A stretch of DNA of 64,000 nt. It comes from Desulfurococcales archaeon (lineage in GTDB: Archaea > Thermoproteota > Thermoprotei_A > Sulfolobales > NBVN01). Under the pieces are notes generated by a model that worked only from the letters and a program-made list of their open reading frames with translations, made no database searches and was not told where the DNA came from. Location: the NCBI GenBank assembly GCA_015523295.1, contig WAKQ01000010.1, positions 59,021 to 123,020 on the forward strand. The letters run 5' to 3'. Position numbers and translations under genes: made by a program. Below, piece after piece: positions 2,634 to 49,728 of the stretch (position 1 is its first letter; every line of letters begins with the position of its first letter).

Positions 2634-4085
2634 TTAGTGGCGACGTTTGAGTGATGTAGTTAGAAGTATTCCTATTATACCTCCAACAAGTATAATTATT
2701 ATTGCTGGGATCAGGTGGTCTTTATACACTACGTTTACATGTTCTGGGTTTGATGATGAGTTAGCTAATGAGGTTTGCTGAGATGTTGTTGGGATGTTGG
2801 TGGTTCTAGACGAGCTATATGGTGTAATGGAAGTTGTGCTTGAGGGTGTGAATTCGCTTCCATTATTCAATTGAGGTTGGGTGGTACTTACAGCTGTTGA
2901 AGTGGTTGTGTTGAAACTAGTATGCGTTGTTGGCGTGGTCGTAGATGAGACGTTGATTCTTGATGAGTTTTGCGGCGGGGTTTCAGCAGTTAGCGCTTCC
3001 TTGATCAACTGGATATACTTGCTAATCTTAGGATAAAGTACTGTGCTGAGGTTCCCCGTCTTTAAGGCATTGAGGAGGTCTTCCGGTACGGAACCTTCAG
3101 GATACACTTCCAGTATTTCAGCATACCTGTAGAGACTTAACTCCTGCTTCAATTCTTCAACTTCCTTGCTAGTTACATTAGCCTCCGTGGTCTCACCTGT
3201 TATTATGGAGGGGTATTTAATCAATGCACCTGCCAGGAAGTCGAGTGATATCCATCCCTTGCCTGGAAGGTACATCAGCACATATGCATGCGGACCGGCA
3301 TTTATATAGGTGATGTACGAGCCTTCAACATCGAAGGTGGAGTTGAATGGGAGGTAGACATAGGAATACTGGATCTTCGCAGGTATGCCGTAGCCCCATA
3401 GGAGGTTAATGAGGACTCTTGACATGTCGTCGCAGTCGCCTGTCCTATTCTCCACGACGTCTTCGATGGAGCGCGGTAGGGCTGATGCACTGTATTTTAT
3501 ATAATATTGCCCGTAGATAAAGATAGCCGCAGCTACACCTAAGAAAGCTTTAGACACATTGCTTGGAAGGTAACTGTTCTTCTTTAGCCAAGACTCGAAG
3601 GCACTTCTAACTGTGGTGTTCACTATGGGTAACGGCTTCTTAATATATTTCGACGTTATCTCATGCGGAGTATTATTGTAGATCCCTGAAAAAATCAAGG
3701 GATTCTTCACTATCTCAAACACTAATCCTGAGATGTTCTTCACCTGCTGTGTTATTTTGAGGACCACATAGCCGTAGGTGTTATTGCTCATGTTCATCGC
3801 GTATGGCGGGGTATTGTTCACTACCCTCGCCTCACCCCCTATCGCTATAGTGGTGACCGTCTGGTTTACAGTGCCATCACTATAGTTTATCGGGGTCTCG
3901 AAGTAACCGGGGGACTCATTGTTGCTGTAAACCACGTACGCATAGTCAAAGTAGTAGAACACGTTCCTGCTTATTGAGTAGCTGGTCTGTCCTGCACCAC
4001 CACTGCTCACGTTTAATGAGAGTAAGAGAATAAAGAGGAGCAGTAAACTCATAGACTTGCTAAATACTGTGCGACTATCTTTCAA
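2634..4085 (-). CDS. Secreted transglutaminase-like (Cys-protease fold) protein with Ser/Thr-rich stalk and C-terminal TM anchor
   Basis: N-terminal signal-like segment (LLLLFILLLSLNVSS). Transglutaminase-core-like GDCDDMSRVLINLLWGYGIPA with a downstream His/Asp. About 90 aa of S/T/P-rich sequence, many NxS/T sequons, and a terminal hydrophobic helix followed by KRRH. Confidence 0.55.
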   Translation of the reverse strand: MKDSRTVFSKSMSLLLLFILLLSLNVSSGGAGQTSYSISRNVFYYFDYAYVVYSNNESPGYFETPINYSDGTVNQTVTTIAIGGEARVVNNTPPYAMNMSNNTYGYVVLKITQQVKNISGLVFEIVKNPLIFSGIYNNTPHEITSKYIKKPLPIVNTTVRSAFESWLKKNSYLPSNVSKAFLGVAAAIFIYGQYYIKYSASALPRSIEDVVENRTGDCDDMSRVLINLLWGYGIPAKIQYSYVYLPFNSTFDVEGSYITYINAGPHAYVLMYLPGKGWISLDFLAGALIKYPSIITGETTEANVTSKEVEELKQELSLYRYAEILEVYPEGSVPEDLLNALKTGNLSTVLYPKISKYIQLIKEALTAETPPQNSSRINVSSTTTPTTHTSFNTTTSTAVSTTQPQLNNGSEFTPSSTTSITPYSSSRTTNIPTTSQQTSLANSSSNPEHVNVVYKDHLIPAIIIILVGGIIGILLTTSLKRRH

Positions 4086-4153: not shown

Positions 4154-5089
4154 ATGATATGTTGGGGTGCGGTAATGGTGATGGATGAGTTCTCAGCTAT
4201 TAGGAGGTTCTTAAAGCCTCTTGCTGAAACATATAAGAAAGGCGGAATTGGCTTCATGGATGATGCGTATGCGATACGCTTAGGTGAAACCTTAGTATTC
4301 ATTAAGATTGACGGCACCTCAATTAAGTCATCAATGTATCCTTGGATGGGTTATGACGACCTAATCTATAGGGTGGCAGCTGGCGCCATAGTAGACGTTA
4401 TCGCTAAGGGTGGGAGGCCTACAGTCATTACCGCGTCTATTGGGTTACCAGCAGATGAGTTGCCTAAGTCATTAGATCCCTTAAGTAATGGTTTATCAAG
4501 GCTCATAGAGAGATACGGCCTTATTTACGGAGGCGGAGATCTCAACTCATCCATCGGAGATGGGTGGATTGATATAGGTGTATTAGGTTATGGGGACAAG
4601 TTTATCCCTAATAAACCTCTCAGACCTGGGGACAAGATCTTTATCACTGGCTGCCTGGGGTTATCTGCTATCCCAGCCTTAATTCATTACAAGGGCCTGG
4701 AAGATAAATATATTAACAGGGTGAAAGGGAGAGTTGTTAACCCACATATTCCAGTGGAATTTCTAAGCGTTAAGAATAAAGTAAGGGCATCCACTGACAT
4801 CAGCGATGGATTAGAATCCTTAAGGAAAGCCCTTAACTTAAGCGGTGTGGCACTAAAAATTTCTGAGGAACCCCCCCTCTGCAAGGAGGCAGTAGAGTTC
4901 GCAGAGATGTACAGTCTAACAGTAAGTGATATCTTAGGGTATTTGGGTGAGGAGTTCGTTATCGCTTATGTCAGCGAGGAAGGGAGACATTACCTTGGTG
5001 AGATAGTGGAAGGTCCTTCAGGCCAGATACTATATAAGGATAAGGTTTTAAGAGGGGGCTGGGACAACTTCCTCGGCTTCATGAAGTAG
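4154..5089 (+). CDS. thiL: Thiamine-monophosphate kinase (AIR-synthase/PurM-like fold)
   Basis: Motifs GFMDDAYAI...FIKIDG and GGGDLNSS, with a size typical of ThiL. The likely start is the internal ATG at 4175 or 4181 (MDEFSAI). Confidence 0.65.
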   Translation: MICWGAVMVMDEFSAIRRFLKPLAETYKKGGIGFMDDAYAIRLGETLVFIKIDGTSIKSSMYPWMGYDDLIYRVAAGAIVDVIAKGGRPTVITASIGLPADELPKSLDPLSNGLSRLIERYGLIYGGGDLNSSIGDGWIDIGVLGYGDKFIPNKPLRPGDKIFITGCLGLSAIPALIHYKGLEDKYINRVKGRVVNPHIPVEFLSVKNKVRASTDISDGLESLRKALNLSGVALKISEEPPLCKEAVEFAEMYSLTVSDILGYLGEEFVIAYVSEEGRHYLGEIVEGPSGQILYKDKVLRGGWDNFLGFMK

Positions 5090-5153
5090 CTAAATAGTTT
5101 ACATCAGTAGATAACTTTTAATTTTAACACTGTATAAGTCATTACAGAGGTAC

Positions 5154-8100
5154 ATGAAGATGGGTACAGAATCCAGTAGTTCTGAAGGTGCATCGAAAAG
5201 CAAGGCCCCTCTTAAAGTGTCTGTGTTCGATCCGATAAGGAGAGTTGTTAGGATAGCAGATAGGGAGATCAAAATAGGTGGGCCCCTCCCTAAGGTTAGG
5301 GAAGGGGAGAAGCTGATAAGATACACTCAGTCCATCTGCCCCTACTGCTACAGACTGCTTCCTGCAATAATAGTGGAAAGAGACGGGAAATTCTATATAA
5401 GAAAAATATGTCCAGAACATGGTGAGATTGAAGAAGTCTATCAAGGAAGCTCTGAGTGGGCTAAGCGCATAGAGAAGTTCTTCATAGAAGGTAGAGGAAC
5501 CCGCTACGTCTATACTGACTTTACAGCACCATGTCCCTTCAGCTGTGGGTTATGCCCACTACACAAAAACCACACAGCTCTAGCAAACCTGGTGGCTACT
5601 AACAGATGCGACCTAGATTGCTGGTATTGCTTCCCTGAATGGGAGGAAGCTCTGTTTAAGGTTAATGGGAAAATTCAGCTGGTTAAGTTCGGGGAACTTG
5701 CGAAAAGGTTCGGATTTGAGCATAAAGTCGAGATAGATGGGTTCAGGGGGGAGTACTCAATACCAAACGATTTATACGTGCTTTCACTGCGAGGCGGTAA
5801 GGCTGAATGGGTTAGGGTAACTAAGTTCCTTAGAAGAAGGCATGAAGGCGATCTTGTAAAGATAAAGACAAGCTCAGGTAGAGAAATTCATGTAACCCCA
5901 GAACACAAGATTATGGTTGAGGGCCCTGAAGGCCTTGTGAAGAAAAGAGCTGACGAGGTGGAGATAGGGGATAGAGTTAGGATTCTATGCAGCATGAGTC
6001 AAGAAGGATCTATTAGACGGGTAAACCTTTTAGAAGCTTTTAAAAATCTTCCCGAGGAGGAGCAAAGGAAGATTTACGTCCATATCGGTAAAGGGCAGGA
6101 TCTCTCTGTTCTTAAAGAAATCTACGGTGAGAAGGTCTACTCCTGGAGAAGTCAAGGATCAGTGCCTTTGGAAGCTTACTATAAGATGAGCTCTAATTTA
6201 GCCATGGATCCTGAGCTGGGAAGAGATGCCACATCATATACGATGCCTTCCATAATCGAGTTAACTCCTGACTTAGGAAAGCTAATAGGATACTTCATAG
6301 CTGATGGGCACTATACGTACAAGGATCTAAGAATTACAGTAGGTGATGATGATGTTGAGAAGGAAATCTTAGGAATACTTGAAAGGCTTGGACTTCCCTA
6401 TAGCTTTATTGAATGGGAAGGTAAGGCGAGACAGATAGTTATAGGAAGTAGGCTTATGAGATTAGTGTTTAAGCATGTGTTCAAAATACCTGAGGGTGCT
6501 GCTGATAAGAGACTACCTGAGAGGTTCATGGAGTTCCCAAGGGAAGTTAAGTTAGCTATGTTGAGTGGTCTCTTTAACGGAGACGGGTACGTGGAGAAAG
6601 GCACTAGGCATCTCGCAATAGGTTATGCAAGCGTTTCAAAAGGACTGATCAGAGATCTCCTCTACCTCCTTACATCATTAGGCATATTTGCAAGAGTGAG
6701 CAAGGTACCTAAAGAGAAGATGGCTCTAGCAAAACATGATCTTTACAAGATAAAGATCTCAGGGGAGGAAATCAATAAATTCCTCGAGCTGGTAGAGCTG
6801 GTGCCACGACACCTTAAGAAGCTTGGGGTGGTTGGGAAGAGGAGGCCAGCACGTGTTAAGAAGATAGGTGACTATTGTGTTGATACTGTTAAGGAAATTA
6901 CCAGGATTCCCTACAGCGGCTATGTTTATGACCTGGAAGTCGATTCAGAAGATCACTACTTCATCGCTTCAGACGGTCTGCTAGTAAGCAATTGCTTCTT
7001 CTTTGCGGAGAAAGCTGGTTATGTGTATGAACCAACACTTGAGCAGATAGAACACATGGTTAAGGAATATCTGAAGCAGAGGGTGACCCCTGTTATACAG
7101 ATTACCGGTGGTGAGCCAACAATAAGAGAGGATCTTGTGGATATAATTAAGTTGTTGAAGAGGCTTGGTGTCAAGCATATTCAACTGAATACTAACATCA
7201 CTAAGTTCGCTAAGTTATATATTTCTCAAGGGGAGGAAGCAGCTGTTAGATATGCAAGGGAGATCAGGGAAGCGGGGGTAAACACTGTATATATGAGCTT
7301 TGATGGAGTTTCACCAAAGGCCAATCCTAAGAATCATTGGGAGGTCCCCTTTGCGTTCGATGCCTTCAGGAAAGCAGGCATGACTAGCGTTGTTCTGGTT
7401 CCGACAGTGATTAAAGGCGTTAACACAGAGGAATTAGGTGATATAATAAGGTTTGCAGCTATGAATAACGATATTGTTAGAGCGGTTAACTTCCAGCCCG
7501 TGTCCCTTACTGGAGCGATCAAGCGTGGCGATAGGGAAAAGTTGAGAGTCACGATGTATGATACTGTAAAACTTATTGAAGAGCAAACCGGTGGCCAGAT
7601 AACAGTCAATGACTGGTATCCTGTGCCAGTGACTGTATCCATATCTGAGTTCGCTGAGGCCTTAGCAAATGGATTCAAGTTTGAGATGGCCAACCATCCT
7701 GAATGCGGTGTCGGAACCTACGTCTATTATAGGAAGAAAGAGAATGGAGAAGGTTATGAATACATACCCATAACGAGAATGATCGATGTTGAAGGCTTTC
7801 TCACCTACCTCATGGAAAAAGCGATGGAGCTGAAGTCGGGCAAGAGTAAACTACTGGTAGGGACTAAGACGCTCTTCAACATATTTACGAAATTCATCAA
7901 GTGGGATGGCGTTCCTCCAGAGTTAAAGAAGACGCTGCCTAAAGTGTTATACAATATATTCACGAAGCAGTCCTATGAGGCGTTAGGTGAATGGCACTAC
8001 AAATTCATGTTCTTAGGGATGATGCACTTCATGGACTTATACAACTACGATGTTGAGAGAGTCATGAGATGCAACATTCACTACCTCATGCCAGATGGCA

Positions 8101-8366
8101 GGATTATACCCTTCTGCACGTTTAACGTCCTTAACGATATCTACAGAGACTATGTCCAAAAGAAGTATATGATACCACTGGATGAGTGGAAGAAGCTCAA
8201 GGGAGAAAACACTGTGGGTGAACCCATAAAGTATAGAAGAAACTTGGAACTCATAAAGAAGATGACCTCTCACCCACTCTACCTTAAGACATACGGACCC
8301 TTCATCCATAGGTGGAGGAAGCTGTATCCATGGCTCAATATTGAGGGTACTGAGCTGAAAGAGTAA
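5154..8366 (+). CDS. tes: Radical-SAM protein of the tetraether lipid synthase (Tes / GDGT-MAS, MJ0619-like) type, interrupted by an intein
   Basis: N-terminal 4-Cys knuckle CPYC..x..CPEHG and auxiliary-cluster motif CPFSCGLCPLH. The radical-SAM motif CDLDCWY|C is split by a 455-aa insert. Conserved C-terminal region MHFMDLYNYD..RCNIHY..PFCTFN. The spliced product would be about 615 aa. The radical-SAM assignment is firm, while the Tes family assignment is from memory of family motifs. Confidence 0.6.
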   Translation: MKMGTESSSSEGASKSKAPLKVSVFDPIRRVVRIADREIKIGGPLPKVREGEKLIRYTQSICPYCYRLLPAIIVERDGKFYIRKICPEHGEIEEVYQGSSEWAKRIEKFFIEGRGTRYVYTDFTAPCPFSCGLCPLHKNHTALANLVATNRCDLDCWYCFPEWEEALFKVNGKIQLVKFGELAKRFGFEHKVEIDGFRGEYSIPNDLYVLSLRGGKAEWVRVTKFLRRRHEGDLVKIKTSSGREIHVTPEHKIMVEGPEGLVKKRADEVEIGDRVRILCSMSQEGSIRRVNLLEAFKNLPEEEQRKIYVHIGKGQDLSVLKEIYGEKVYSWRSQGSVPLEAYYKMSSNLAMDPELGRDATSYTMPSIIELTPDLGKLIGYFIADGHYTYKDLRITVGDDDVEKEILGILERLGLPYSFIEWEGKARQIVIGSRLMRLVFKHVFKIPEGAADKRLPERFMEFPREVKLAMLSGLFNGDGYVEKGTRHLAIGYASVSKGLIRDLLYLLTSLGIFARVSKVPKEKMALAKHDLYKIKISGEEINKFLELVELVPRHLKKLGVVGKRRPARVKKIGDYCVDTVKEITRIPYSGYVYDLEVDSEDHYFIASDGLLVSNCFFFAEKAGYVYEPTLEQIEHMVKEYLKQRVTPVIQITGGEPTIREDLVDIIKLLKRLGVKHIQLNTNITKFAKLYISQGEEAAVRYAREIREAGVNTVYMSFDGVSPKANPKNHWEVPFAFDAFRKAGMTSVVLVPTVIKGVNTEELGDIIRFAAMNNDIVRAVNFQPVSLTGAIKRGDREKLRVTMYDTVKLIEEQTGGQITVNDWYPVPVTVSISEFAEALANGFKFEMANHPECGVGTYVYYRKKENGEGYEYIPITRMIDVEGFLTYLMEKAMELKSGKSKLLVGTKTLFNIFTKFIKWDGVPPELKKTLPKVLYNIFTKQSYEALGEWHYKFMFLGMMHFMDLYNYDVERVMRCNIHYLMPDGRIIPFCTFNVLNDIYRDYVQKKYMIPLDEWKKLKGENTVGEPIKYRRNLELIKKMTSHPLYLKTYGPFIHRWRKLYPWLNIEGTELKE
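5628..6992 (+). mobile_element. Intein (Hint domain plus LAGLIDADG homing endonuclease), 455 aa, in-frame within the radical-SAM gene
   Basis: Cys1 (CFPEWEEALFKV). Block B IHVTPEHKIMV (TxxH). LAGLIDADG motifs LIGYFIADGHY and LSGLFNGDGYV. Blocks F/G YVYDLEVDSEDHYFIASDGLLVSN followed by the +1 Cys. Excision restores CDLDCWYC. Confidence 0.85.
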
Positions 8367-8401
8367 AAGCCAAGCTTTTTCAAAGTTTTCGCTTTACAGA
8401 T

Positions 8402-9763
8402 TCACTTCTTGTATAACCTAGCTCTATACTCACTGAATAGGTCATCCACCCTACTGACCCAGGCTTTCAATCCCTTACTTTTTTGCGGGTAGTTCATGTA
8501 GGCATCCTTGACTTTACCCATGTAATCCGCTACTATCTTGAGCTGGAGGAGGAGGGACGGCCTTCTCAGTCCGGCAAGGAGTCTCATGGCCTTATCAACA
8601 ATGCCCAGTTCCAGGTCGCCTTTAAGCGATACAGTATTAAGGTCTTCCTCCTTAATCAACTTTTTCCTCATACCGTATTCCAGTTCTTCATCACTTAATT
8701 CCTGAAGGAACATTCTAAAAACATCTAGAGCTGCCTGCTTAGCACCGTATCTGCTCATATAGCATTTATTTACCTCCCATAGGGCGTCATTATCCCATTT
8801 ACCTTGGGCTTCTTCAAGAGCGTGAGAAAGACACCAGGCGGAGAGCATAGCTGAGCCCTTTCCTCCACCATGTATTGGATTTACTGTGTAAGCAGAGTCC
8901 CCTATTGCTGCTATTCCATTCCACACAAGAGTGTTGATAGGTCTCCTTGTGGGAACTGCAGCACCGCCTGACTCAATAACCTTGCTTTCACGAAGTTCAG
9001 CCCTGTTCAGTACTTTGGTATACAATAGGTCCTTCGGATGGGGATAGCCCCTCCCTCCCTGAACGCCTAAACCTATATTAACAGTGTGAGGCTCCATCGA
9101 GTAGGGGAAGAACCACCAGTACCCTCCAGGGGCTTTATCCTTAGAGACGTAAATCCTAAGTATCTCAGGCTCTTCAATATCTTTCTTCAATTCCCGTATC
9201 TCCCTGTAAGCGACATTCATTTCAGTAGGATTCAGCTCATCCCGTATGGGCCACTCACGCGGTAACTTTCTTATAAGTGCTCTAGACATTCCCGTGGCAT
9301 CGACCAGGAGGTTGGTGCTAACTTCCCATGAACCTTTCCTCCTACTCCAAAGGACAGCTCCTTTAACTATGCCGTCCTTGATAACGGGATCCTTGACCTG
9401 GGTTTCTTGGAAGTATTCAGCACCGTTATCAATAGCTAGCCTGATGAATCTCTGTGTGAAGGCAACTCGGTTAACCTCGAAGCCCTCCCCAAGAACCCTA
9501 TACTTCATCCCCTCTGAAGGGGAGTAGACGTCAATACCTCTTACTAAACCCTCAAGTTCCCCATTCCTGGGATACTCTATGCCAAGCTCATCTAAGTGAT
9601 GTTTTCCAATAGCATCTCCGCAGGGCTTATCACCGGCGCGGTGGAAGGGCTTCACATCAGCTAACAATACCTTAAACCCCTTCCTGCTGATGAAGTAAGC
9701 AGCTGAGGCACCCGCTATACCTGCACCAGCTATGACAACATCATATTTTTCCATTAAGGCCAC
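8402..9763 (-). CDS. Geranylgeranyl reductase family flavoprotein (digeranylgeranylglycerophospholipid reductase-like)
   Basis: N-terminal FAD fold YDVVIAGAGIAGASAAY, PCGDAIG motif, GDSAYTVNPIHGGG. 453 aa. Confidence 0.8.
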   Translation of the reverse strand: MALMEKYDVVIAGAGIAGASAAYFISRKGFKVLLADVKPFHRAGDKPCGDAIGKHHLDELGIEYPRNGELEGLVRGIDVYSPSEGMKYRVLGEGFEVNRVAFTQRFIRLAIDNGAEYFQETQVKDPVIKDGIVKGAVLWSRRKGSWEVSTNLLVDATGMSRALIRKLPREWPIRDELNPTEMNVAYREIRELKKDIEEPEILRIYVSKDKAPGGYWWFFPYSMEPHTVNIGLGVQGGRGYPHPKDLLYTKVLNRAELRESKVIESGGAAVPTRRPINTLVWNGIAAIGDSAYTVNPIHGGGKGSAMLSAWCLSHALEEAQGKWDNDALWEVNKCYMSRYGAKQAALDVFRMFLQELSDEELEYGMRKKLIKEEDLNTVSLKGDLELGIVDKAMRLLAGLRRPSLLLQLKIVADYMGKVKDAYMNYPQKSKGLKAWVSRVDDLFSEYRARLYKK

Positions 9764-41780: not shown

Positions 41781-42706
41781 CCCTTAACAACCCTCTCGTG
41801 AGAAAGGATGAGCGCGTCCTCAACTATAACTTTAGAGACTTCTCTACGGTAAAACGCTGTTGACCTGACGTCGTCGATAGGGCTTATTTCCGTCTCAACA
41901 AGCTTTACGTTCTCCCTTATGACCTCGGGGGTGAAGGGTTTGCCTTTTAAGGCCTCTTCTGTTTTCCAAGCTCGTACTGGTGTGGGAGCAGCCGACCCTA
42001 TTGCTATCCTAGCGAACTTAATTCTGCCGTCCTCCACCTTCACTGCAGTTGCTGCACTTATTTTAGCTAGGTCCATTGCCGTCCTGGCCACCTTGATGAA
42101 CGCTGAACCTGTTCCTGGTTCAGGCTTAGGTATTATTATCTCTTTCAGGAGCTCGTCAGGCCTCATCACTGTCTTACCAGGTCCTTTGAAGAACTGGGTT
42201 ATTGGTACTTCTCTCTCCCCTTCCCTGCTCGCTAGTATTAGGCGTGCTTCAAGAACCATCAGCGGCGGGGCGCTGTCAGCTGCCGGAGAAGCATTACACA
42301 AATTACCCCCAATAGTGGCCATGTTCCTTATTTGAGTTCCTCCCATAGCCTTAACTGCATCGTAGAGTGCAGGGAAGTACTTCATTATTACGTCAGATCT
42401 CTCAAGCTCCCTCCACTTGGTGAGGGCCCCTATACGTACTTCACCGCCTTCATCGCGTATGTAGCTGAGTTCCTTAAGCTTCTTGATGTTGATCACGTAT
42501 TTCGGCTCGACAACCCTCATCTTCATCTTCACTAGCAGGTCAGTGCCACCTGCAAGAACTTTTGCCTCACTACCATACTTATTCAGTAATTCCAATGCCT
42601 CCTCAAGCGATGAAGGTGCGAAGTATTCGAACCTTACTGGTATTATATGCGTATTATACAGGTTATGTCTTGAAGGCCTTATATTGACTTGGGTCATGTC
42701 TTTCAC
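41768..42706 (-). CDS. Molybdopterin hydroxylase medium subunit, FAD-binding (CoxM/CutB type), cluster 1
   Basis: AGGTDL and GGNLCNASPAADS motifs, with C-terminal ISPIDDVRSTAFYRR. 312 aa. Confidence 0.85.
   Translation of the reverse strand: MKDMTQVNIRPSRHNLYNTHIIPVRFEYFAPSSLEEALELLNKYGSEAKVLAGGTDLLVKMKMRVVEPKYVINIKKLKELSYIRDEGGEVRIGALTKWRELERSDVIMKYFPALYDAVKAMGGTQIRNMATIGGNLCNASPAADSAPPLMVLEARLILASREGEREVPITQFFKGPGKTVMRPDELLKEIIIPKPEPGTGSAFIKVARTAMDLAKISAATAVKVEDGRIKFARIAIGSAAPTPVRAWKTEEALKGKPFTPEVIRENVKLVETEISPIDDVRSTAFYRREVSKVIVEDALILSHERVVKGWMK
42128..42319. repeat. Near-identical tract shared with the paralogous FAD-subunit gene at 50070..50261 (inverted orientation)
   Basis: 42179..42319 matches 50070..50210 at 139/141 nt, and both differences are synonymous. 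42128..42157 matches 50232..50261 at 30/30. The 21 nt between these blocks and the flanks outside them are strongly diverged. Confidence 0.9.
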
Positions 42707-45057
42707 CTCCCTTTCTTCTTAAGGGCTTCAAGGATTCTTTCTGGGGTTATGGGCAGCTCGTAGAACCGCACTCCTATCGCGTTGTAGATAGCGTTAGCGA
42801 CGGCCCCAGCAACCGAGTTAAGTGCGGCTTCACCCAGTCCCTTAGCTCCGTGAGGTCCTGTGGGTTCGTAGGTGTGAGCGAATATAACCTGGAAGTCATC
42901 TAATTTAGGCATGTCTGGCGCTGTCAGGATCTTGTAGTCGGTTATGAAGCCCTTATTCGTTAGCTCACCTGTTCTGGGATCGTATATCGTGTCTTCTAAT
43001 GTAGCCATCCCCCAACCCTGGGCAAATCCTCCATGGAGCTGTCCTGCAGCATAGTCTGGGTTTATCACGGTTCCAATATCGGCGCCTGCAATTACCTTAA
43101 CTGGCCTCACCTTCCCCGTGTATGTATCTACCTCGACCTCAACAAAGTATACTGTGAAGCTGGGCGGTGCAGCCTTAGACCTGTAGGTGACTGTAGTGGA
43201 TATTGTTCCCCAGTTTCTTTGCCATGCTATAGTTGCGAGGTCTTTAAGCGTTATCCTCATCTGCGGGTTATCTCTGACATACACCACTGCCTGCCCAAGT
43301 TCCTTATCATAGCCAAGCTCAAGCATGTCCTGATTTACCGCTTTATTCAGGACTCTTATGGCATAGTTGAATATCTTATTCTTTAATTCTCTAGCTGCCT
43401 GAACTGCAGCACCGCCTCCCACATAGGTACCTCTCGACGCATGCGTACATACGTCGTATAGCGTTGTTTGAGTGTCAGACCACACAAGGTTTATGAGGTC
43501 AGGTGGAACCCCAAGCTCCTCAGCAATTATCTTTACATGAGCGTCAAGTGTACCGCCTCCATGATCCTGTAACGCGGTTATATAGTCAATGGTTCCATCT
43601 TCATTCAACTTCAGTATAGCGCCTGTGTAGTCAATTGTCTCGCCGGAGATAGGCCCTCCTGCACCTGAGGTGTGGAAAGACCTGCCGACGCCTATACCTC
43701 TCCTATATCTCCCCGTCTTCTCAGAGGGTGGTCTCCTCCTCTCCCAGCCGATTAGTTCTTTACCCCTCTGCAGGAGTTCAGGCACTCCATCAGATCTTAT
43801 AATGCTCTTCACGGTAGGACCCTGTCCCCAGAATATATCGCCCTTACCCACATAGTTCTTAAGGCGGAACTCAACCGGGTCAATCCCAAGTTCCTCAGCC
43901 ATCTCATCTATTAGGGTCTCAACAGCCCAAGAGACCTGTGGTGCACCGTAACCTCTAAAGGCGCATGTTGGTACTTTATTTGTGTAGACCGCTTTACCAA
44001 CATATCTTATGTTCTTCCATTTATAGAGGGAGACAAACCATCCTAAAGCAGTTCCTAGTAATGGATATGCCTGAATCTGATGTGCCCCTATGTCCATGAT
44101 GTTCTCAAGTTCTCCGGCAATAAGCGTGCCATCACTTTTAGCTCCAGCACGTATCTTGAAATGCATCTGGTACGCAGCATGGTCATAAATGTCTTCTTCA
44201 CGTGTCATTGATATTTTAACGGGTTTCCTAGCCTTCAGGCATAATGCAACGCTAATTGGCACTACCGGATTTATCTGGATGCTTGACCCGAAGGAGCCTC
44301 CTATAGGCACCTTCACTACGTTGATCTTGCTCATAGGGATGTCAAAGATCTGGCTGATCAGAATTCTAGTGTTATGGATTGTTTGGGTCGTGGAGTATAT
44401 GGTGATGCTCCCATCACTATGGGGTATACAGACAGATGTCTTCGGCTCGAGTTGCATGTGGTACCTTCTGTTAGTTCTGAACCTTCTCTCAAGAACCACG
44501 TCTGCTTCCTTCAGTGCCTTATCTACATCACCCTCACTGTACTCGAGAGTGCATCCAACATTGTTTTTAACATCGATCCACTCATCTCCCTTCAATATCC
44601 TCTTATGTATTAATGGGGCGCTAGGTGACATCGCTTCGAAAGGATCGAGTATAGGTTCATACACTCTTTCGAATTCAACCTTTATTGCCTCAAGAGCTCT
44701 CTGGGCTGCTTCCTCCGTAGGTGCAGCGACCGCCGCGATCGCGTCTCCTAAGTAGCGAGGGTGCTTAGTTAGGACTCTGTAATCCTTGTAGGTCACTTCA
44801 AAGATGCTGACTAATCTAGGATTGAAGATTTTGTCAGGAACATCGTCAGGCGTTATCACGACAGCGCCCATCCTCTCAGCTTCTGAGGTGTCTATCCTCT
44901 TAACGTCTGCGAATGCGTAAGGACTCTTAAAGACCCTGCCAACCAGCATTCCCGGAACATAGATATCGGAAGAGAACTTCAGGGTTCCAGTTACCTTAGG
45001 GATACCATCCTTCCTAATTGTTTTCTTACCAATGAAGATATGTTTCGGTTCCTCCAA
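42703..45057 (-). CDS. Molybdopterin hydroxylase large subunit (xanthine dehydrogenase / aldehyde oxidoreductase / CutA family), cluster 1
   Basis: 784 aa. Family motifs include FRGYGAPQ, EVEVDTYTGKVR and GPHGAKGLGEAA. Confidence 0.85.
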   Translation of the reverse strand: MEEPKHIFIGKKTIRKDGIPKVTGTLKFSSDIYVPGMLVGRVFKSPYAFADVKRIDTSEAERMGAVVITPDDVPDKIFNPRLVSIFEVTYKDYRVLTKHPRYLGDAIAAVAAPTEEAAQRALEAIKVEFERVYEPILDPFEAMSPSAPLIHKRILKGDEWIDVKNNVGCTLEYSEGDVDKALKEADVVLERRFRTNRRYHMQLEPKTSVCIPHSDGSITIYSTTQTIHNTRILISQIFDIPMSKINVVKVPIGGSFGSSIQINPVVPISVALCLKARKPVKISMTREEDIYDHAAYQMHFKIRAGAKSDGTLIAGELENIMDIGAHQIQAYPLLGTALGWFVSLYKWKNIRYVGKAVYTNKVPTCAFRGYGAPQVSWAVETLIDEMAEELGIDPVEFRLKNYVGKGDIFWGQGPTVKSIIRSDGVPELLQRGKELIGWERRRPPSEKTGRYRRGIGVGRSFHTSGAGGPISGETIDYTGAILKLNEDGTIDYITALQDHGGGTLDAHVKIIAEELGVPPDLINLVWSDTQTTLYDVCTHASRGTYVGGGAAVQAARELKNKIFNYAIRVLNKAVNQDMLELGYDKELGQAVVYVRDNPQMRITLKDLATIAWQRNWGTISTTVTYRSKAAPPSFTVYFVEVEVDTYTGKVRPVKVIAGADIGTVINPDYAAGQLHGGFAQGWGMATLEDTIYDPRTGELTNKGFITDYKILTAPDMPKLDDFQVIFAHTYEPTGPHGAKGLGEAALNSVAGAVANAIYNAIGVRFYELPITPERILEALKKKGR

Positions 45058-47385: not shown

Positions 47386-49728
47386 ATGAGTGCAGCAGAA
47401 GATCCGTATACTTTAATGGAGAAATGGCTTAAGGCGAAGGAGTTCTTGGTGGTTGGCAAGGGCGTTAGGAGAGCTGACGCTATTGAAAAAGCTTTAGGAA
47501 TGGCTAGGTACGTTGAAGATTTCTATATGCCAGGCCATATGTTATTTGTTAAGCAGGTGTTAAGCACTGAACCCCATGCAAGGATATTAGGTGTGGATGC
47601 TTCGAAAGCCTTAGAGATTCCAGGTGTTGAGGGGGTATTCACAGCAAAGGATATTCCTGGGGAAAATCAGGTCGGCTATGCTCTGCCTGATCAGCCTCTA
47701 TTAGCTGATGGCAAGGTCAGGTTTGTCGGCGATCTTGTGGCCCTCGTAGCCGCCAGGGATTTCGATACAGCGATAAGGGCTGCTGAAGAGGTCAGGATTA
47801 AATATGAGCCTCTGCCCTATGTTCTAGATCCTCTTGAAGCTATGAAGAGAACCGACGTTTTAGTTCATGAGGAGGTCGGCTCTAACATAGCTTTTAGAAC
47901 CAAGGTAAGAAAGGGCAATGTGGAGGAAGGGTTTGCTAAGTCAGACGTGATCGTAGAGAACGAATATAGGACCCATCATCAAGACCACCTTTACTTAGAG
48001 ACAGAGGGCGCGTTAGCCCTTCCAGAGCTGGGAGACAGGCTTACTGTCATATCGGCAGGCCAGTATCCCCACCTAGTGAGGGCCATAGTGTCGAGGGTTG
48101 TAGGCCTTCCAGAGAGCCATGTTAAGGTGATAATACCCTATATGGGAGGTGGTTTCGGCGGTAAGGATGATGAGGGCCCCTTAGTTGCTGCTAAGGCGGC
48201 GTTGGTTGCAAGGCTTACCGGGAAGCCGTCCTTCCTTCTCTACACAAGGGAAGAATCCCTCATAATGCATCCTAAGAGAGAAGCTACTGTGATTAAGTAC
48301 AAGAGTGGCGCGTCAAAGGATGGAAAGCTGCAGGCCATTGATGTGCAAATAATTCATGATACAGGTGCATTCACTAATAGAGGACCTTTCATATTGTGGA
48401 GGGCGACAGTTCACGCTTCAGGGCCATATAAGGTGCCGCACGCAAAGGTAGACGGATACTGCATATATACCAACAAAGTATACCAAGGTTCCTATAGGGG
48501 ATTCGGAAATCCATCCGTGCAGTTTGCAGCCGAGGCCCAAATGGATAGACTTGCTGAGAAGCTTGGAATGGATCCAGTGGACTTCCGCCTTAAGAACCTT
48601 CTGAGACCTGGAGATACAACAATCACTAATCAGCTCCTAGACCATTCCGTAGGTGTGGCTGATGCAGTTGCAAAACTAGCTGAAACGGCTGGGTGGAGAG
48701 AGAAGAGGGAGAGGTACTCTAAGGAAAACGGAGGAAGGTATAGGAAAGGTATAGGGATAGGAGTCGCTTGGCACGGCATAAGCACCTCCAGAGGCGTGCC
48801 TGACTGGTCTAACGCCTTAGTGAAGATAGAGAAGGACGGGTCGGTTAGTGTGCATACAGGCATTGTTGAGATGGGGCAGGGCTCTCCCGTAAGCTCCCAC
48901 CGTCAAATAGCTGCCGAGATCTTAGGTGCACCCATAGATCTGGTGACTGTTGACTTCGGCACCACTGACGCTCCTGACACTGGGGCGACGCATGCATCAA
49001 GAGGTACAAGTATCGGTGCTATAGGCGTCTATGTAGCGTCAGCTAAGCTTAGAGAGAGGCTAAACAGGCTGGCGGCTGAGCTCCTCGAGACATCACCTGA
49101 CGACATAGTGATTAAGGATGGTAAGGCTTATGCTAGGAGCAATCCCAGCAAGAGTATTAGTTGGAAAGACCTCATCAAGGAGGCTTACGCTAGAGGAGTG
49201 GAGATGAGCGCGACAGGCTACTTCTTCCTACCTAAGGGTAAGTTCGATGACCAGAAAGGGCAGGGCTATGCCTATCCAGCCTTCAGTTATGTTGCTATGA
49301 TAGCTGAGGTCGAGGTAGATACATACACGGGGAAGGTGAGGGTTCTGAGGATATGGCCTGGCCTGGCTGCGGGGAAGATAATAAATCCAACTCAGGTAGA
49401 AGGGCAGGTAGAAGGAGCTGCAGTTCAAGGAATGGGCTATGCCCTAATGGAGCAGTTCGTCTTCGACGATAAGGGCAGGATACTAAACGCTGATATGACT
49501 GACTATGTGATCCCGACAGCTTTAGATGCGCCTGAAATAATGAAGCCTGTATATGTTGAAGACATATTCAAGTATGGACCCTTCGGAGCTAAGGGTGTGG
49601 GTGAGATGGCATTGATACCGGCACCCGCAGCAATAGCTAATGCAGTGTCGAATGCCTTAGGGATCAAGGTTACTAAGCTACCTCTAACCTCAGAGAATGT
49701 TTACTTCCTGATTAAGGGGAAGAGATAG
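47386..49728 (+). CDS. Molybdopterin hydroxylase large subunit, cluster 2
   Basis: 780 aa. Motifs GGGFGGKDD, YRGFGNPS, EVEVDTYTGKVR and GPFGAKGVGEMA. Confidence 0.85.
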   Translation: MSAAEDPYTLMEKWLKAKEFLVVGKGVRRADAIEKALGMARYVEDFYMPGHMLFVKQVLSTEPHARILGVDASKALEIPGVEGVFTAKDIPGENQVGYALPDQPLLADGKVRFVGDLVALVAARDFDTAIRAAEEVRIKYEPLPYVLDPLEAMKRTDVLVHEEVGSNIAFRTKVRKGNVEEGFAKSDVIVENEYRTHHQDHLYLETEGALALPELGDRLTVISAGQYPHLVRAIVSRVVGLPESHVKVIIPYMGGGFGGKDDEGPLVAAKAALVARLTGKPSFLLYTREESLIMHPKREATVIKYKSGASKDGKLQAIDVQIIHDTGAFTNRGPFILWRATVHASGPYKVPHAKVDGYCIYTNKVYQGSYRGFGNPSVQFAAEAQMDRLAEKLGMDPVDFRLKNLLRPGDTTITNQLLDHSVGVADAVAKLAETAGWREKRERYSKENGGRYRKGIGIGVAWHGISTSRGVPDWSNALVKIEKDGSVSVHTGIVEMGQGSPVSSHRQIAAEILGAPIDLVTVDFGTTDAPDTGATHASRGTSIGAIGVYVASAKLRERLNRLAAELLETSPDDIVIKDGKAYARSNPSKSISWKDLIKEAYARGVEMSATGYFFLPKGKFDDQKGQGYAYPAFSYVAMIAEVEVDTYTGKVRVLRIWPGLAAGKIINPTQVEGQVEGAAVQGMGYALMEQFVFDDKGRILNADMTDYVIPTALDAPEIMKPVYVEDIFKYGPFGAKGVGEMALIPAPAAIANAVSNALGIKVTKLPLTSENVYFLIKGKR

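Follow-up and report, generated by a model that had tools for sequence, protein, structure and literature searches.

In the window, by which we mean the whole 64-kb stretch of DNA from an uncultured Desulfurococcales archaeon analysed here, the tetraether lipid synthase gene (tes) is very probably interrupted by a full-length class-1 intein belonging to the known Tes-a allele, long referred to as the Pyrococcus abyssi 'MoaA intein'. The insertion point lies directly before the third cysteine of the CX3CX2C radical-SAM motif, and this same cysteine is the +1 nucleophile of the intein.

A predicted intein within the radical-SAM motif of tes

The tes reading frame (5154..8366, + strand) encodes 1070 amino acids and is intact and stop-free across 3210 nt. 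An in-frame insert of 455 amino acids (nt 5628..6992) separates CDLDCWY from CFFFAEK; the insert begins with CFPEWEE at residue 159 (nt 5628), and the C-extein begins with CFFFAEK at residue 614 (nt 6993). The recomputed coordinates of the frame and the insert coincided exactly with those of the original prediction, and each of the motifs it had listed (Cys1, block B, two LAGLIDADG motifs, blocks F and G) was found in the sequence (Table 1).

Table 1. Features of the tes locus and its convergent neighbour, in window coordinates
Feature	Position	Strand	Evidence
N-extein of tes, aa 1-158	5154..5627	+	Pfam Zn_ribbon_HMPTM, aa 55-96; 7TOL alignment; motif spacing
Rubredoxin-type CX2CX20CX2H site, N-extein	5337..5420	+	Spacing matches Lloyd et al. 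2022, PMC9433317
N-terminal auxiliary-cluster motif CPFSCGLCPLH	5532..5564	+	Spacing matches Lloyd et al. 2022, PMC9433317
Radical-SAM cysteines 1 and 2 (CDLDCWY)	5607..5627	+	
Predicted intein, class-1 Hint split by LAGLIDADG homing endonuclease, 455 aa, ~52 kDa	5628..6992	+	Pfam; NCBIfam; AF2; Foldseek; empty allele L001
Intein Cys1	5628	+	
Intein block B GREIHVTPEHKIMV, TxxH = T90 + H93	5877..5918	+	Both residues invariant in 42 Tes inteins
LAGLIDADG motif 1 LGKLIGYFIADGHY, predicted catalytic Asp226	6273..6314	+	Pfam LAGLIDADG_3; aligns to PI-PkoII motif 1
LAGLIDADG motif 2 LAMLSGLFNGDGYV, predicted catalytic Asp319	6552..6593	+	Pfam LAGLIDADG_3 and Hom_end; aligns to PI-PkoII motif 2
Intein block F GYVYDLEVDSEDHYFIA (D435, H443 = key residues of F/G)	6918..6968	+	NCBIfam intein_Cterm TIGR01443
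Intein block G SDGLLVSN, penultimate S454, terminal N455 (6990..6992)	6969..6992	+	NCBIfam intein_Cterm TIGR01443
C-extein of tes, aa 614-1070	6993..8366	+	Pfam Radical_SAM; NF045702; 7TOL alignment; invariant columns
Cys+1, splice nucleophile and third radical-SAM cluster ligand	6993..6995	+	
SAM-binding ITGGEP, C-extein	7101..7118	+	
C-terminal cluster region GMMHFMD...C...C	8016..8126	+	
Digeranylgeranylglycerophospholipid (DGGGPL) reductase, convergent neighbour	8402..9763	-	NF041080, 604.5 bits vs cutoff 580

Searching the insert for Hint and LAGLIDADG profiles, a check that had been proposed together with the intein claim, returned matches to Pfam Intein_splicing (1.2e-18, 67.9 bits against a cutoff of 35.8), LAGLIDADG_3 (4.4e-21, 75.4 bits, two stretches matched) and Hom_end (5.6e-05, 23.7 bits), as well as to NCBIfam TIGR01445 (48.5 bits, cutoff 24.5) and TIGR01443 (26.8 bits with the full precursor and 23.3 with the intein alone, cutoff 15.6). 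Positions 156-610 of NCBIfam NF045703 align with intein residues 1-455 at 1.9e-188 and 628 bits. Matches of this strength lie well outside what chance would give. Among solved inteins the closest sequence was PI-PkoII (1.2e-19); both LAGLIDADG motifs align with it, and D226 and D319 stand opposite its acidic residues. An AF2 model of the intein (pLDDT 92.2, pTM 0.91) likewise had PI-PkoII (2cw7) as its top Foldseek match (E 9e-30, TM 0.70), followed by the intein endonucleases 7qsu, 7qss, 7qst, 1dq3 and PI-SceI; the homing endonucleases I-DmoI and I-Tsp061I were also matched, and the Hint part of the model matched the mini-inteins 4e2t, 5o9i, 2lcj and 7oec. The profiles, the PI-PkoII alignment and the modelled fold thus bear out the LAGLIDADG-intein reading, and the insert, as judged from them, is a class-1 Hint intein with a two-motif LAGLIDADG homing endonuclease. 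It shares with PI-PkoII (the Pol intein of Thermococcus kodakarensis), PI-PfuI, the Tli/Pho VMA inteins and PI-SceI the common architecture of a Hint domain, an inserted two-motif LAGLIDADG domain and an extra DNA-binding region, but these inteins have other host proteins and other insertion sites and are only ~20% identical to it.

The residues expected to carry out splicing (C1, T90, H93, N455 and C+1) are all present and are invariant among 42 homologous Tes inteins. The same set shows no variation at D435 and H443 and at least 90% conservation of S454; G221, Y222, F223 and G227 of LAGLIDADG motif 1 and N317 and G320 of motif 2 are invariant, with D226 and D319 each at least 90% conserved.

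Empty alleles and boundaries of the insert

Alignment with homologues had been set beforehand as the comparison that could refute an intein. Using the full precursor as query (the intein alone recovered 11 matches), we obtained 118 resolved homologues, of which 67 bear an intein and 51 do not, one of the latter having exteins 95.9% identical to those of the window tes. Among GTDB species representatives there were at least 589 confirmed tes matches. All 67 intein-bearing homologues have CW[YF]/C...[SG]N/CFF junctions (slashes mark the splice points). Empty alleles are therefore common and the boundaries exact, and PDB entry 7TOL also has no insert, which rules out the insert as a conserved domain of the family.

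The closest intein-free allele (protein P0017 on contig L001) encodes 615 amino acids. Its DNA aligns to window positions 4989..5632 and 6993..8972, which defines a clean insertion of 1365 bp with syntenic flanks; both tes genes are 1848 nt long once the insert is removed. The empty site reads ACTAACAGATGTGACCTCGACTGCTGGTAC followed directly by TGCTTTTTCTTTGCAGAGAAGGCCGGTTAT. Seven homologues have mini-inteins of 171-235 amino acids at the same site, the LAGLIDADG domain being gone, and in a regular-expression check of the 61 full-length inteins, 13 had at least one motif in which no acidic residue was recognised. The exact protein of the window was not found on record. An apparent multi-intein gene (L023) was spurious and reflected two neighbouring radical-SAM genes.

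The host is a tetraether lipid synthase

The identification of the host as a Tes/GDGT-MAS orthologue, made in the original prediction, held on several grounds. The NCBIfam equivalog NF045702 scored 662.4 bits with the spliced sequence and 639.1 with the unspliced one (cutoff 450). The spliced host aligns with 7TOL at E 2.8e-132, placing CDLDCWYC opposite CNLNCPIC. Its metal sites comprise a rubredoxin-type site (C62/C65/C86/H89), an N-terminal cluster (C127/C131/C134/H137), the radical-SAM cluster (C152/C156/C614) and a C-terminal cluster region (GMMHFMD...C973...C988), in agreement with the GDGT-MAS motifs C9X2C12X20C33X2H36 and C73/C77/C80 plus His described by Lloyd et al. 2022 (PMC9433317). 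In comparison with MJ0619, the GDGT-MAS/Tes of Methanocaldococcus jannaschii (7TOL/7TOM), the alignment of the spliced extein covers residues 50-560, with all four metal-site motifs present; MJ0619 has no intein, whereas the window protein has a ~55-aa C-terminal extension and a longer N-terminus. A genuine MoaA (GTP 3',8-cyclase) was considered and rejected, with TIGR02666 at 69.7 bits against a cutoff of 284 and TIGR02668 at 67.1 against 325; the historical 'MoaA' label of this host is a misannotation. Orthology and the adjacent DGGGPL reductase gene suggest that the host would catalyse biphytanyl C-C coupling.

The junctions and the 7TOL alignment agree with the claim that the insertion falls inside CX3CX2C and that the +1 Cys doubles as the third Fe-S ligand. 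The accompanying statement that excision restores CDLDCWYC needs correction: the precursor already reads CDLDCWYC, because intein Cys1 sits at the position of the third Cys. What excision restores is the connection of the motif to the remainder of the radical-SAM core (CFFFAEK...). Even before excision, the precursor has three cysteines at CX3CX2C spacing; that it would be unable to bind the radical-SAM cluster before splicing is plausible, and we infer that it is catalytically dead.

The DGGGPL reductase gene also adjoins the intein-free tes on L001. Saturated lipid chains, the substrate of Tes, are the product of this reductase, saturation preceding coupling (Lloyd et al. 2022, PMC9433317); its gene belongs to the context of the locus outside the intein.

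The same allele in Pyrococcus abyssi and in close relatives

The intein had been put forward as possibly new to this family. It is not: NF045703 is a curated NCBIfam model named 'tetraether lipid synthase Tes, intein-containing', applied by RefSeq to Pyrococcus and Thermococcus proteins, and the P. abyssi protein CAB49617/Q9V0T6, annotated 'MoaA' and now 'Tes, intein-containing' at NCBI, is a Tes with an intein at the identical site. The P. abyssi (Pab) intein has an orthologous host and shares with the window intein the insertion site (CWY/C...SN/CFF), the length of 455 aa, Cys1, Cys+1, the penultimate Ser, the CWYC (Cys-3/Cys1) arrangement and both LAGLIDADG motifs. The two inteins are 62.6% identical over 455 aa while the exteins are only 47.7% identical, and the host in the window is a Desulfurococcales (Thermoproteota) Tes whose C-extein starts with CFFFA rather than the CFFYA of Pab. 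Whole-protein scores against NF045703 were 1222.5 bits for the window, 1210 for P0012 of the same clade and 2149 for Pab, so that the window protein falls below the cutoff of 1700. The model appears to be tuned to Thermococcales, and the sub-cutoff score to be a matter of scoring, the architecture being equal.

Two reviews (PMC3922620, PMC10663303), citing Callahan et al. 2011, describe the Pab MoaA intein as having a native Cys-3/Cys1 disulfide, a redox trap that controls its activity, and this redox-trap literature still terms its host 'MoaA oxidoreductase'. The Tes-a allele was already known from P. abyssi, as were its location within the radical-SAM motif and the redox-sensitive Cys-3/Cys1 pair; all of these are curated by NCBI. 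Our literature search found no papers linking inteins with the tetraether lipid synthase Tes or with GDGT, a link that is present in database names only; Lloyd et al. 2022 (PMC9433317) makes no mention of inteins. The host name 'MoaA' in the sampled intein literature is outdated; the protein is a tetraether lipid synthase, and conditional-splicing physiology therefore concerns membrane lipids and not the molybdenum cofactor.

Much closer copies are found in metagenomic and MAG Tes proteins of Desulfurococcales (P0012, P0141, P0142 and L002), none of which is annotated as intein-containing. They have the same allele, with inteins of 455 aa that are 88-89.5% identical to that of the window and share its CFPEWEEALFKV start and GLLVSN end. 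Their exteins diverge more than the inteins, with 84-87% amino-acid identity and saturated synonymous sites. L002 (JALWQN010000029, Desulfurococcales archaeon M2_metabat1_scaf2bin.068) is the closest GTDB species representative among the matches listed, at 88% identity.

The penultimate serine and the proposed splicing pathway

A penultimate His usually assists cyclisation of the terminal Asn, and PI-PkoII, PI-PfuI, the Tli/Pho VMA inteins and PI-SceI generally carry one. In the window intein the penultimate residue of block G is Ser454 in place of this common but non-obligatory His, a feature originally singled out as unusual. Within the allele it is the rule: 64 of the 67 Tes inteins, that of Pab included, end in SN, three end in GN, and none ends in HN. 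Because the whole allele has Ser or Gly here and the Pab intein, reported to be active, itself ends in SN, Ser454 is a trait of the Tes-a allele and no defect. Absence of the His may nonetheless mean slow or conditional splicing.

The sequence allows a complete pathway of protein splicing to be proposed. Translation would yield a 123-kDa precursor. Its Tyr158-Cys159 bond would undergo an N-S acyl shift onto Cys159 (intein Cys1), aided by Thr90 and His93 of block B. Attack of Cys614 (+1) on the thioester would give a branched intermediate, which would be resolved by cyclisation of Asn455 with the help of block F His443, the family-wide Ser standing in place of the usual penultimate His. An S-N shift would then join ...CDLDCWY to CFFFAEK..., giving a Tes of 615 aa and 71 kDa in which the former +1 Cys would be the third [4Fe-4S] ligand. 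The excised 52-kDa LAGLIDADG intein would be expected to cut intein-free tes at the CWY/CFF codons and then to copy itself in. The Cys156/Cys159 pair (Cys-3/Cys1, CWYC) may form a redox-sensitive disulfide, as reported for the Pab intein.

Mobility and selection

We compared fourfold-degenerate sites of the window tes with those of L002. In the intein 75 of 109 sites (69%) were identical, compared with 38 of 142 (27%) in the exteins (Fisher p 3e-11), a contrast that points to recent horizontal homing. Neighbour-joining trees of intein and extein were incongruent. The ancestry of the intein is younger than that of its host gene. The intein is under purifying selection (dN/dS ~0.095; ~0.105 for the endonuclease part); purifying selection on the exteins is very strong, their dN/dS against the empty allele being 0.02. 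Composition revealed no signature of a foreign insert, as the GC content of the intein (0.435; GC3 0.437) shows no departure from that of the exteins or of the 64-kb window (0.451). A look for co-conversion tracts beside the junctions showed slightly raised identity to L002 (0.84-0.91) over the 90 nt upstream, in a region that doubles as the conserved radical-SAM motif. The conserved acidic residues, the dN/dS of the endonuclease part and the younger ancestry of the intein lead us to predict that the endonuclease would cleave intein-less tes alleles.

A splicing-competent intein whose endonuclease is dead or decaying, and which is now a vertically inherited and immobile passenger, is the main competitor of this prediction, though an unlikely one. 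The mini-inteins at the same site indicate that the homing cycle reaches a decay stage in the Tes-a allele, and the full-length inteins lacking an acidic residue in at least one motif would fit such a course. The window intein itself, however, retains both D226 and D319; selection on its endonuclease is no weaker than on its splicing domain; its synonymous-site identity to L002 points to recent horizontal movement; and the allele whose exteins are 95.9% identical has no insert. With an active endonuclease, the occupied allele, the 96%-identical empty one, the mini-inteins and the low synonymous divergence of the intein relative to its host would together represent a clean natural case of a live homing cycle, and the tes intein is a possible test case for mobility between Thermococcales and Thermoproteota.

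Could splicing be a regulatory switch?

The intein might instead be kept as an adaptive conditional switch, in which the Cys156-Cys159 disulfide, or Fe-S binding at the Cys1-containing CX3CX2C of the precursor, would hold splicing up at its initial step; the cell would produce active Tes, and with it tetraether membrane lipid, solely when conditions are reducing or iron-replete. We consider this improbable. Its appeal is that a CWYC-type motif occurs in the window and in every homologue, that the arrangement is shared with the P. abyssi intein, whose native Cys-3/Cys1 disulfide is described in the reviews cited above (PMC3922620, PMC10663303), and that Tes, a three-cluster enzyme, is oxygen-labile (Lloyd et al. 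2022, PMC9433317). The CxxC spacing, however, is imposed by the radical-SAM motif of the host, and the 51 alleles without an intein have it just as well, so its conservation gives no information on whether a switch has been selected for. The intein is dispensable, since close relatives lack it, the evolutionary pattern is that of a selfish mobile element, and binding of a cluster by the precursor is purely speculative. It is doubtful that redox state or Fe-S delivery gates splicing and renders tetraether lipid synthesis post-translationally conditional in hyperthermophilic archaea; if it did, the redox-trap intein literature on a 'MoaA oxidoreductase' would actually describe control of membrane monolayer formation.

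A non-splicing insertion (a defunct intein or a domain of the family), with the gene inactivated or working with the insert in place, draws on the missing penultimate His but is very improbable, given the 51 of 118 homologues and 7TOL that lack the insert and hence speak against a family domain, the invariance of the other splicing residues across 42 inteins, the intact frame over 3210 nt, an extein dN/dS of 0.02 not expected of a dead gene, an intein dN/dS of ~0.1, and the activity reported in the same reviews (PMC3922620, PMC10663303) for the Pab intein, whose last two residues are likewise SN.

Intein anatomy and junctions

The original prediction placed a 455-aa LAGLIDADG intein in a Tes-like (tetraether lipid synthase, or GDGT-MAS) radical-SAM gene. 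The ORF translation agrees exactly, residue 159 (nt 5628) being the first of CFPEWEE and residue 614 (nt 6993) the first of CFFFAEK, and all of the motifs quoted were located in it. Excision was said to restore CDLDCWYC; the unspliced precursor already reads CDLDCWYC because the first residue of the intein is itself Cys, and what removal of the insert does is rejoin the motif to the remainder of the radical-SAM core, before which the precursor would be inactive.

Features of the tes region and of other genes in the window
Feature	Position	Strand	Basis
tes ORF, 1070 aa	5154..8366	+	one long ORF
Intein insert, 455 aa	5628..6992	+	start positions of CFPEWEE and CFFFAEK
Intein block B, GREIHVTPEHKIMV	5877..5918	+	motif in ORF
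LAGLIDADG 1, LGKLIGYFIADGHY	6273..6314	+	motif in ORF
LAGLIDADG 2, LAMLSGLFNGDGYV	6552..6593	+	motif in ORF
Intein block F	6918..6968	+	motif in ORF
Intein block G	6969..6992	+	motif in ORF
Digeranylgeranylglycerophospholipid reductase gene, downstream, convergent with tes	8402..9763	-	NF041080, about 604 bits vs 580
483-aa ORF	2634..4085	-	N-terminal hydrophobic segment, many N-x-S/T sites, long Ser/Thr-rich tail, C-terminal hydrophobic anchor
Xanthine-dehydrogenase-family molybdenum hydroxylase large subunit	42703..45057	-	best matches below equivalog cutoffs
Xanthine-dehydrogenase-family molybdenum hydroxylase large subunit, paralogue	47386..49728	+	best matches below equivalog cutoffs

The intein assignment was borne out by profiles and a structure model alike. 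Pfam models matched in the 455 aa were Intein_splicing (1.2e-18), LAGLIDADG_3 (4.4e-21, two stretches) and Hom_end, and the N-terminal and C-terminal intein splicing regions of NCBIfam both exceeded their cutoffs. The best PDB sequence relative is the intein endonuclease PI-PkoII (2cw7, 1.2e-19); the alignment takes in the two LAGLIDADG helices together with the acidic residues that end them (D226 and D319 in the window). An AlphaFold2 model based on 42 homologous inteins was confident (pLDDT 92.2, pTM 0.91); its top Foldseek matches were intein homing endonucleases only, 2cw7 first (9e-30) and then Tli and Pho VMA, PI-PfuI and PI-SceI. The Hint part was matched by mini-inteins, the endonuclease part by I-DmoI and I-Tsp061I.

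Host gene

Assignment of the host to the Tes/GDGT-MAS family also held. Without the insert the protein has 615 aa and scores 662 bits on the NCBIfam Tes equivalog (cutoff 450). This spliced product aligns over residues 50-560 with the crystal structure of M. jannaschii GDGT-MAS (7TOL, E 2.8e-132), CDLDCWYC standing opposite CNLNCPIC. The product also has all the other metal sites that Lloyd et al. 2022 (PMC9433317) described: the rubredoxin-type CX2CX20CX2H site, the N-terminal cluster (CX3CX2C + His) and the C-terminal cluster region. By profile the host is not a true MoaA, models of which fall far below their cutoffs. The reductase gene downstream, which also follows tes at the intein-free metagenomic locus L001, makes with tes a small lipid-synthesis gene pair, a fitting context.

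Empty, full and reduced alleles

The alignment with homologues proposed in the original prediction revealed a clean insertion. The L001 protein (P0017, 615 aa) shares 95.9% identity with the window protein in spliced form and reads uninterrupted CDLDCWYCFFFAEK across the insertion site. L001 DNA aligns to window positions 4989..5632 and 6993..8972 at 84-85% identity, both neighbour genes included. Intein and C-extein start with identical bases, so that the two aligned segments share 5 nt (TGCTT). With the insert deleted, window tes measures 1848 nt, as does L001 tes. Among 118 homologues with resolvable junctions, a sample biased to intein carriers because the query contained an intein, 51 have no intein, 60 have one of full length (382-472 aa) and seven have a mini-intein (171-235 aa) devoid of LAGLIDADG domains, all inserts lying at one point. 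The mini-inteins (in proteins P0007, P0008, P0032 from Zestosphaera sp., P0113, P0116, P0129 and P0130) are the decay stage of a homing cycle, and related lineages have full or empty alleles as well.

Evolution and mobility of the intein

The evolution of the intein is the only result that goes beyond confirming the original prediction. No protein identical to window Tes was found in the collections searched; the closest among the matches listed in GTDB species representatives is L002 (JALWQN010000029), an intein-bearing Desulfurococcales MAG, at 88% identity. Between window and L002, Nei-Gojobori pS is 0.42 for the intein and 0.87 (saturated) for the exteins. Fourfold-degenerate sites, counted at conserved residues only, are identical at 75/109 positions (69%) in the intein and 38/142 (27%) in the exteins (Fisher p = 3e-11); the window exteins and those of the empty allele L001 agree at 55% of such sites. 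The common ancestor of the two inteins is thus younger than either host-gene split, the signature of horizontal homing. Compared with Thermococcales, the intein is 57-63% identical and the exteins only 47-49%; within the window's own clade the intein has diverged faster than the exteins. Incongruent NJ trees of intein and exteins, built without bootstraps, are only suggestive. The insert showed no compositional anomaly, and no co-conversion tracts were demonstrable.

Canonical class-1 splicing of the precursor, after which the released LAGLIDADG enzyme would promote homing, is by far the likeliest mechanism. As to the endonuclease, it may have decayed in an intein that still splices, an unlikely but not negligible alternative; intein dN/dS is 0.095 overall and 0.105 in the endonuclease part (residues 126-410), indicating purifying selection on both, and D226 and D319 are at least 90% conserved in the 42 inteins.

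A known allele with a conserved Ser-Asn end

The intein had been thought new to the Tes family; the allele is in fact known, curated and experimentally studied. In NCBIfam the full-length tes product matches best the model named 'tetraether lipid synthase Tes, intein-containing' (NF045703), whose positions 156-610 correspond to intein residues 1-455. In RefSeq this name is already carried by proteins from Pyrococcus sp. NA2, Thermococcus celer, T. camini and T. zilligii. P. abyssi CAB49617/Q9V0T6, in the 90%-identity cluster of the NA2 protein, once went under 'molybdenum cofactor biosynthesis MoaA'; its present name is 'Tes, intein-containing'. Its NF045703 score is 2149 bits, and no MoaA model matches it at E<1e-30. 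Its 455-aa intein (Pab; CNLNCWY/CFPPTEE...GILVSN/CFFYA) is 62.6% identical to ours, which is therefore a new member of a known allele, in a Desulfurococcales lineage.

According to two reviews (PMC3922620, PMC10663303), both citing Callahan et al. 2011, the Pab intein has a native Cys-3/Cys1 disulfide, a redox trap; intein reviews to 2023 (the same two) still name the host 'oxidoreductase MoaA'. We did not find Tes named as host in the literature searched, including Lloyd et al. 2022 (PMC9433317), and this identity seems absent from those papers. The Cys-3/Cys1 pair consists of the second and 'third' radical-SAM cysteines (CWYC), and the window has the same pair, which might form a similar trap. 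An adaptive switch gated by redox or Fe-S is improbable.

The penultimate Ser, regarded as unusual in the original prediction, is the rule: 64 of 67 inteins at this site end in SN, Pab included, three in GN and none in HN. Lack of the penultimate His is thus a conserved allele trait rather than a peculiarity of the window sequence, and is a legitimate question about splicing mechanism. C1, T90, H93, D435, H443 and N455 are invariant in the 42 inteins and S454 is at least 90% conserved; that the insert does not splice is hardly credible.

A second insertion site and other genes

Some Tes homologues have a second intein site directly before Thr of the SAM-binding TGGEP (…VQL/S…HN/TGGEP): protein P0111 (aa ~645-1186) and loci L026 (3242..4726), L034 (431..2032) and L045 (~5937..7556). 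Both sites are occupied in P0111 and L026, and apparently only the second in two MAGs, L034 (Iainarchaeum) and L045 (Aenigmatarchaeota). The window equivalent, ITGGEP at 7101..7118, is uninterrupted.

The 483-aa ORF had no NCBIfam match and, judging by its sequence features, probably encodes a glycosylated surface protein. The two hydroxylase large subunits, less than 5 kb apart, are both XdhA- or glyceraldehyde dehydrogenase alpha-like.
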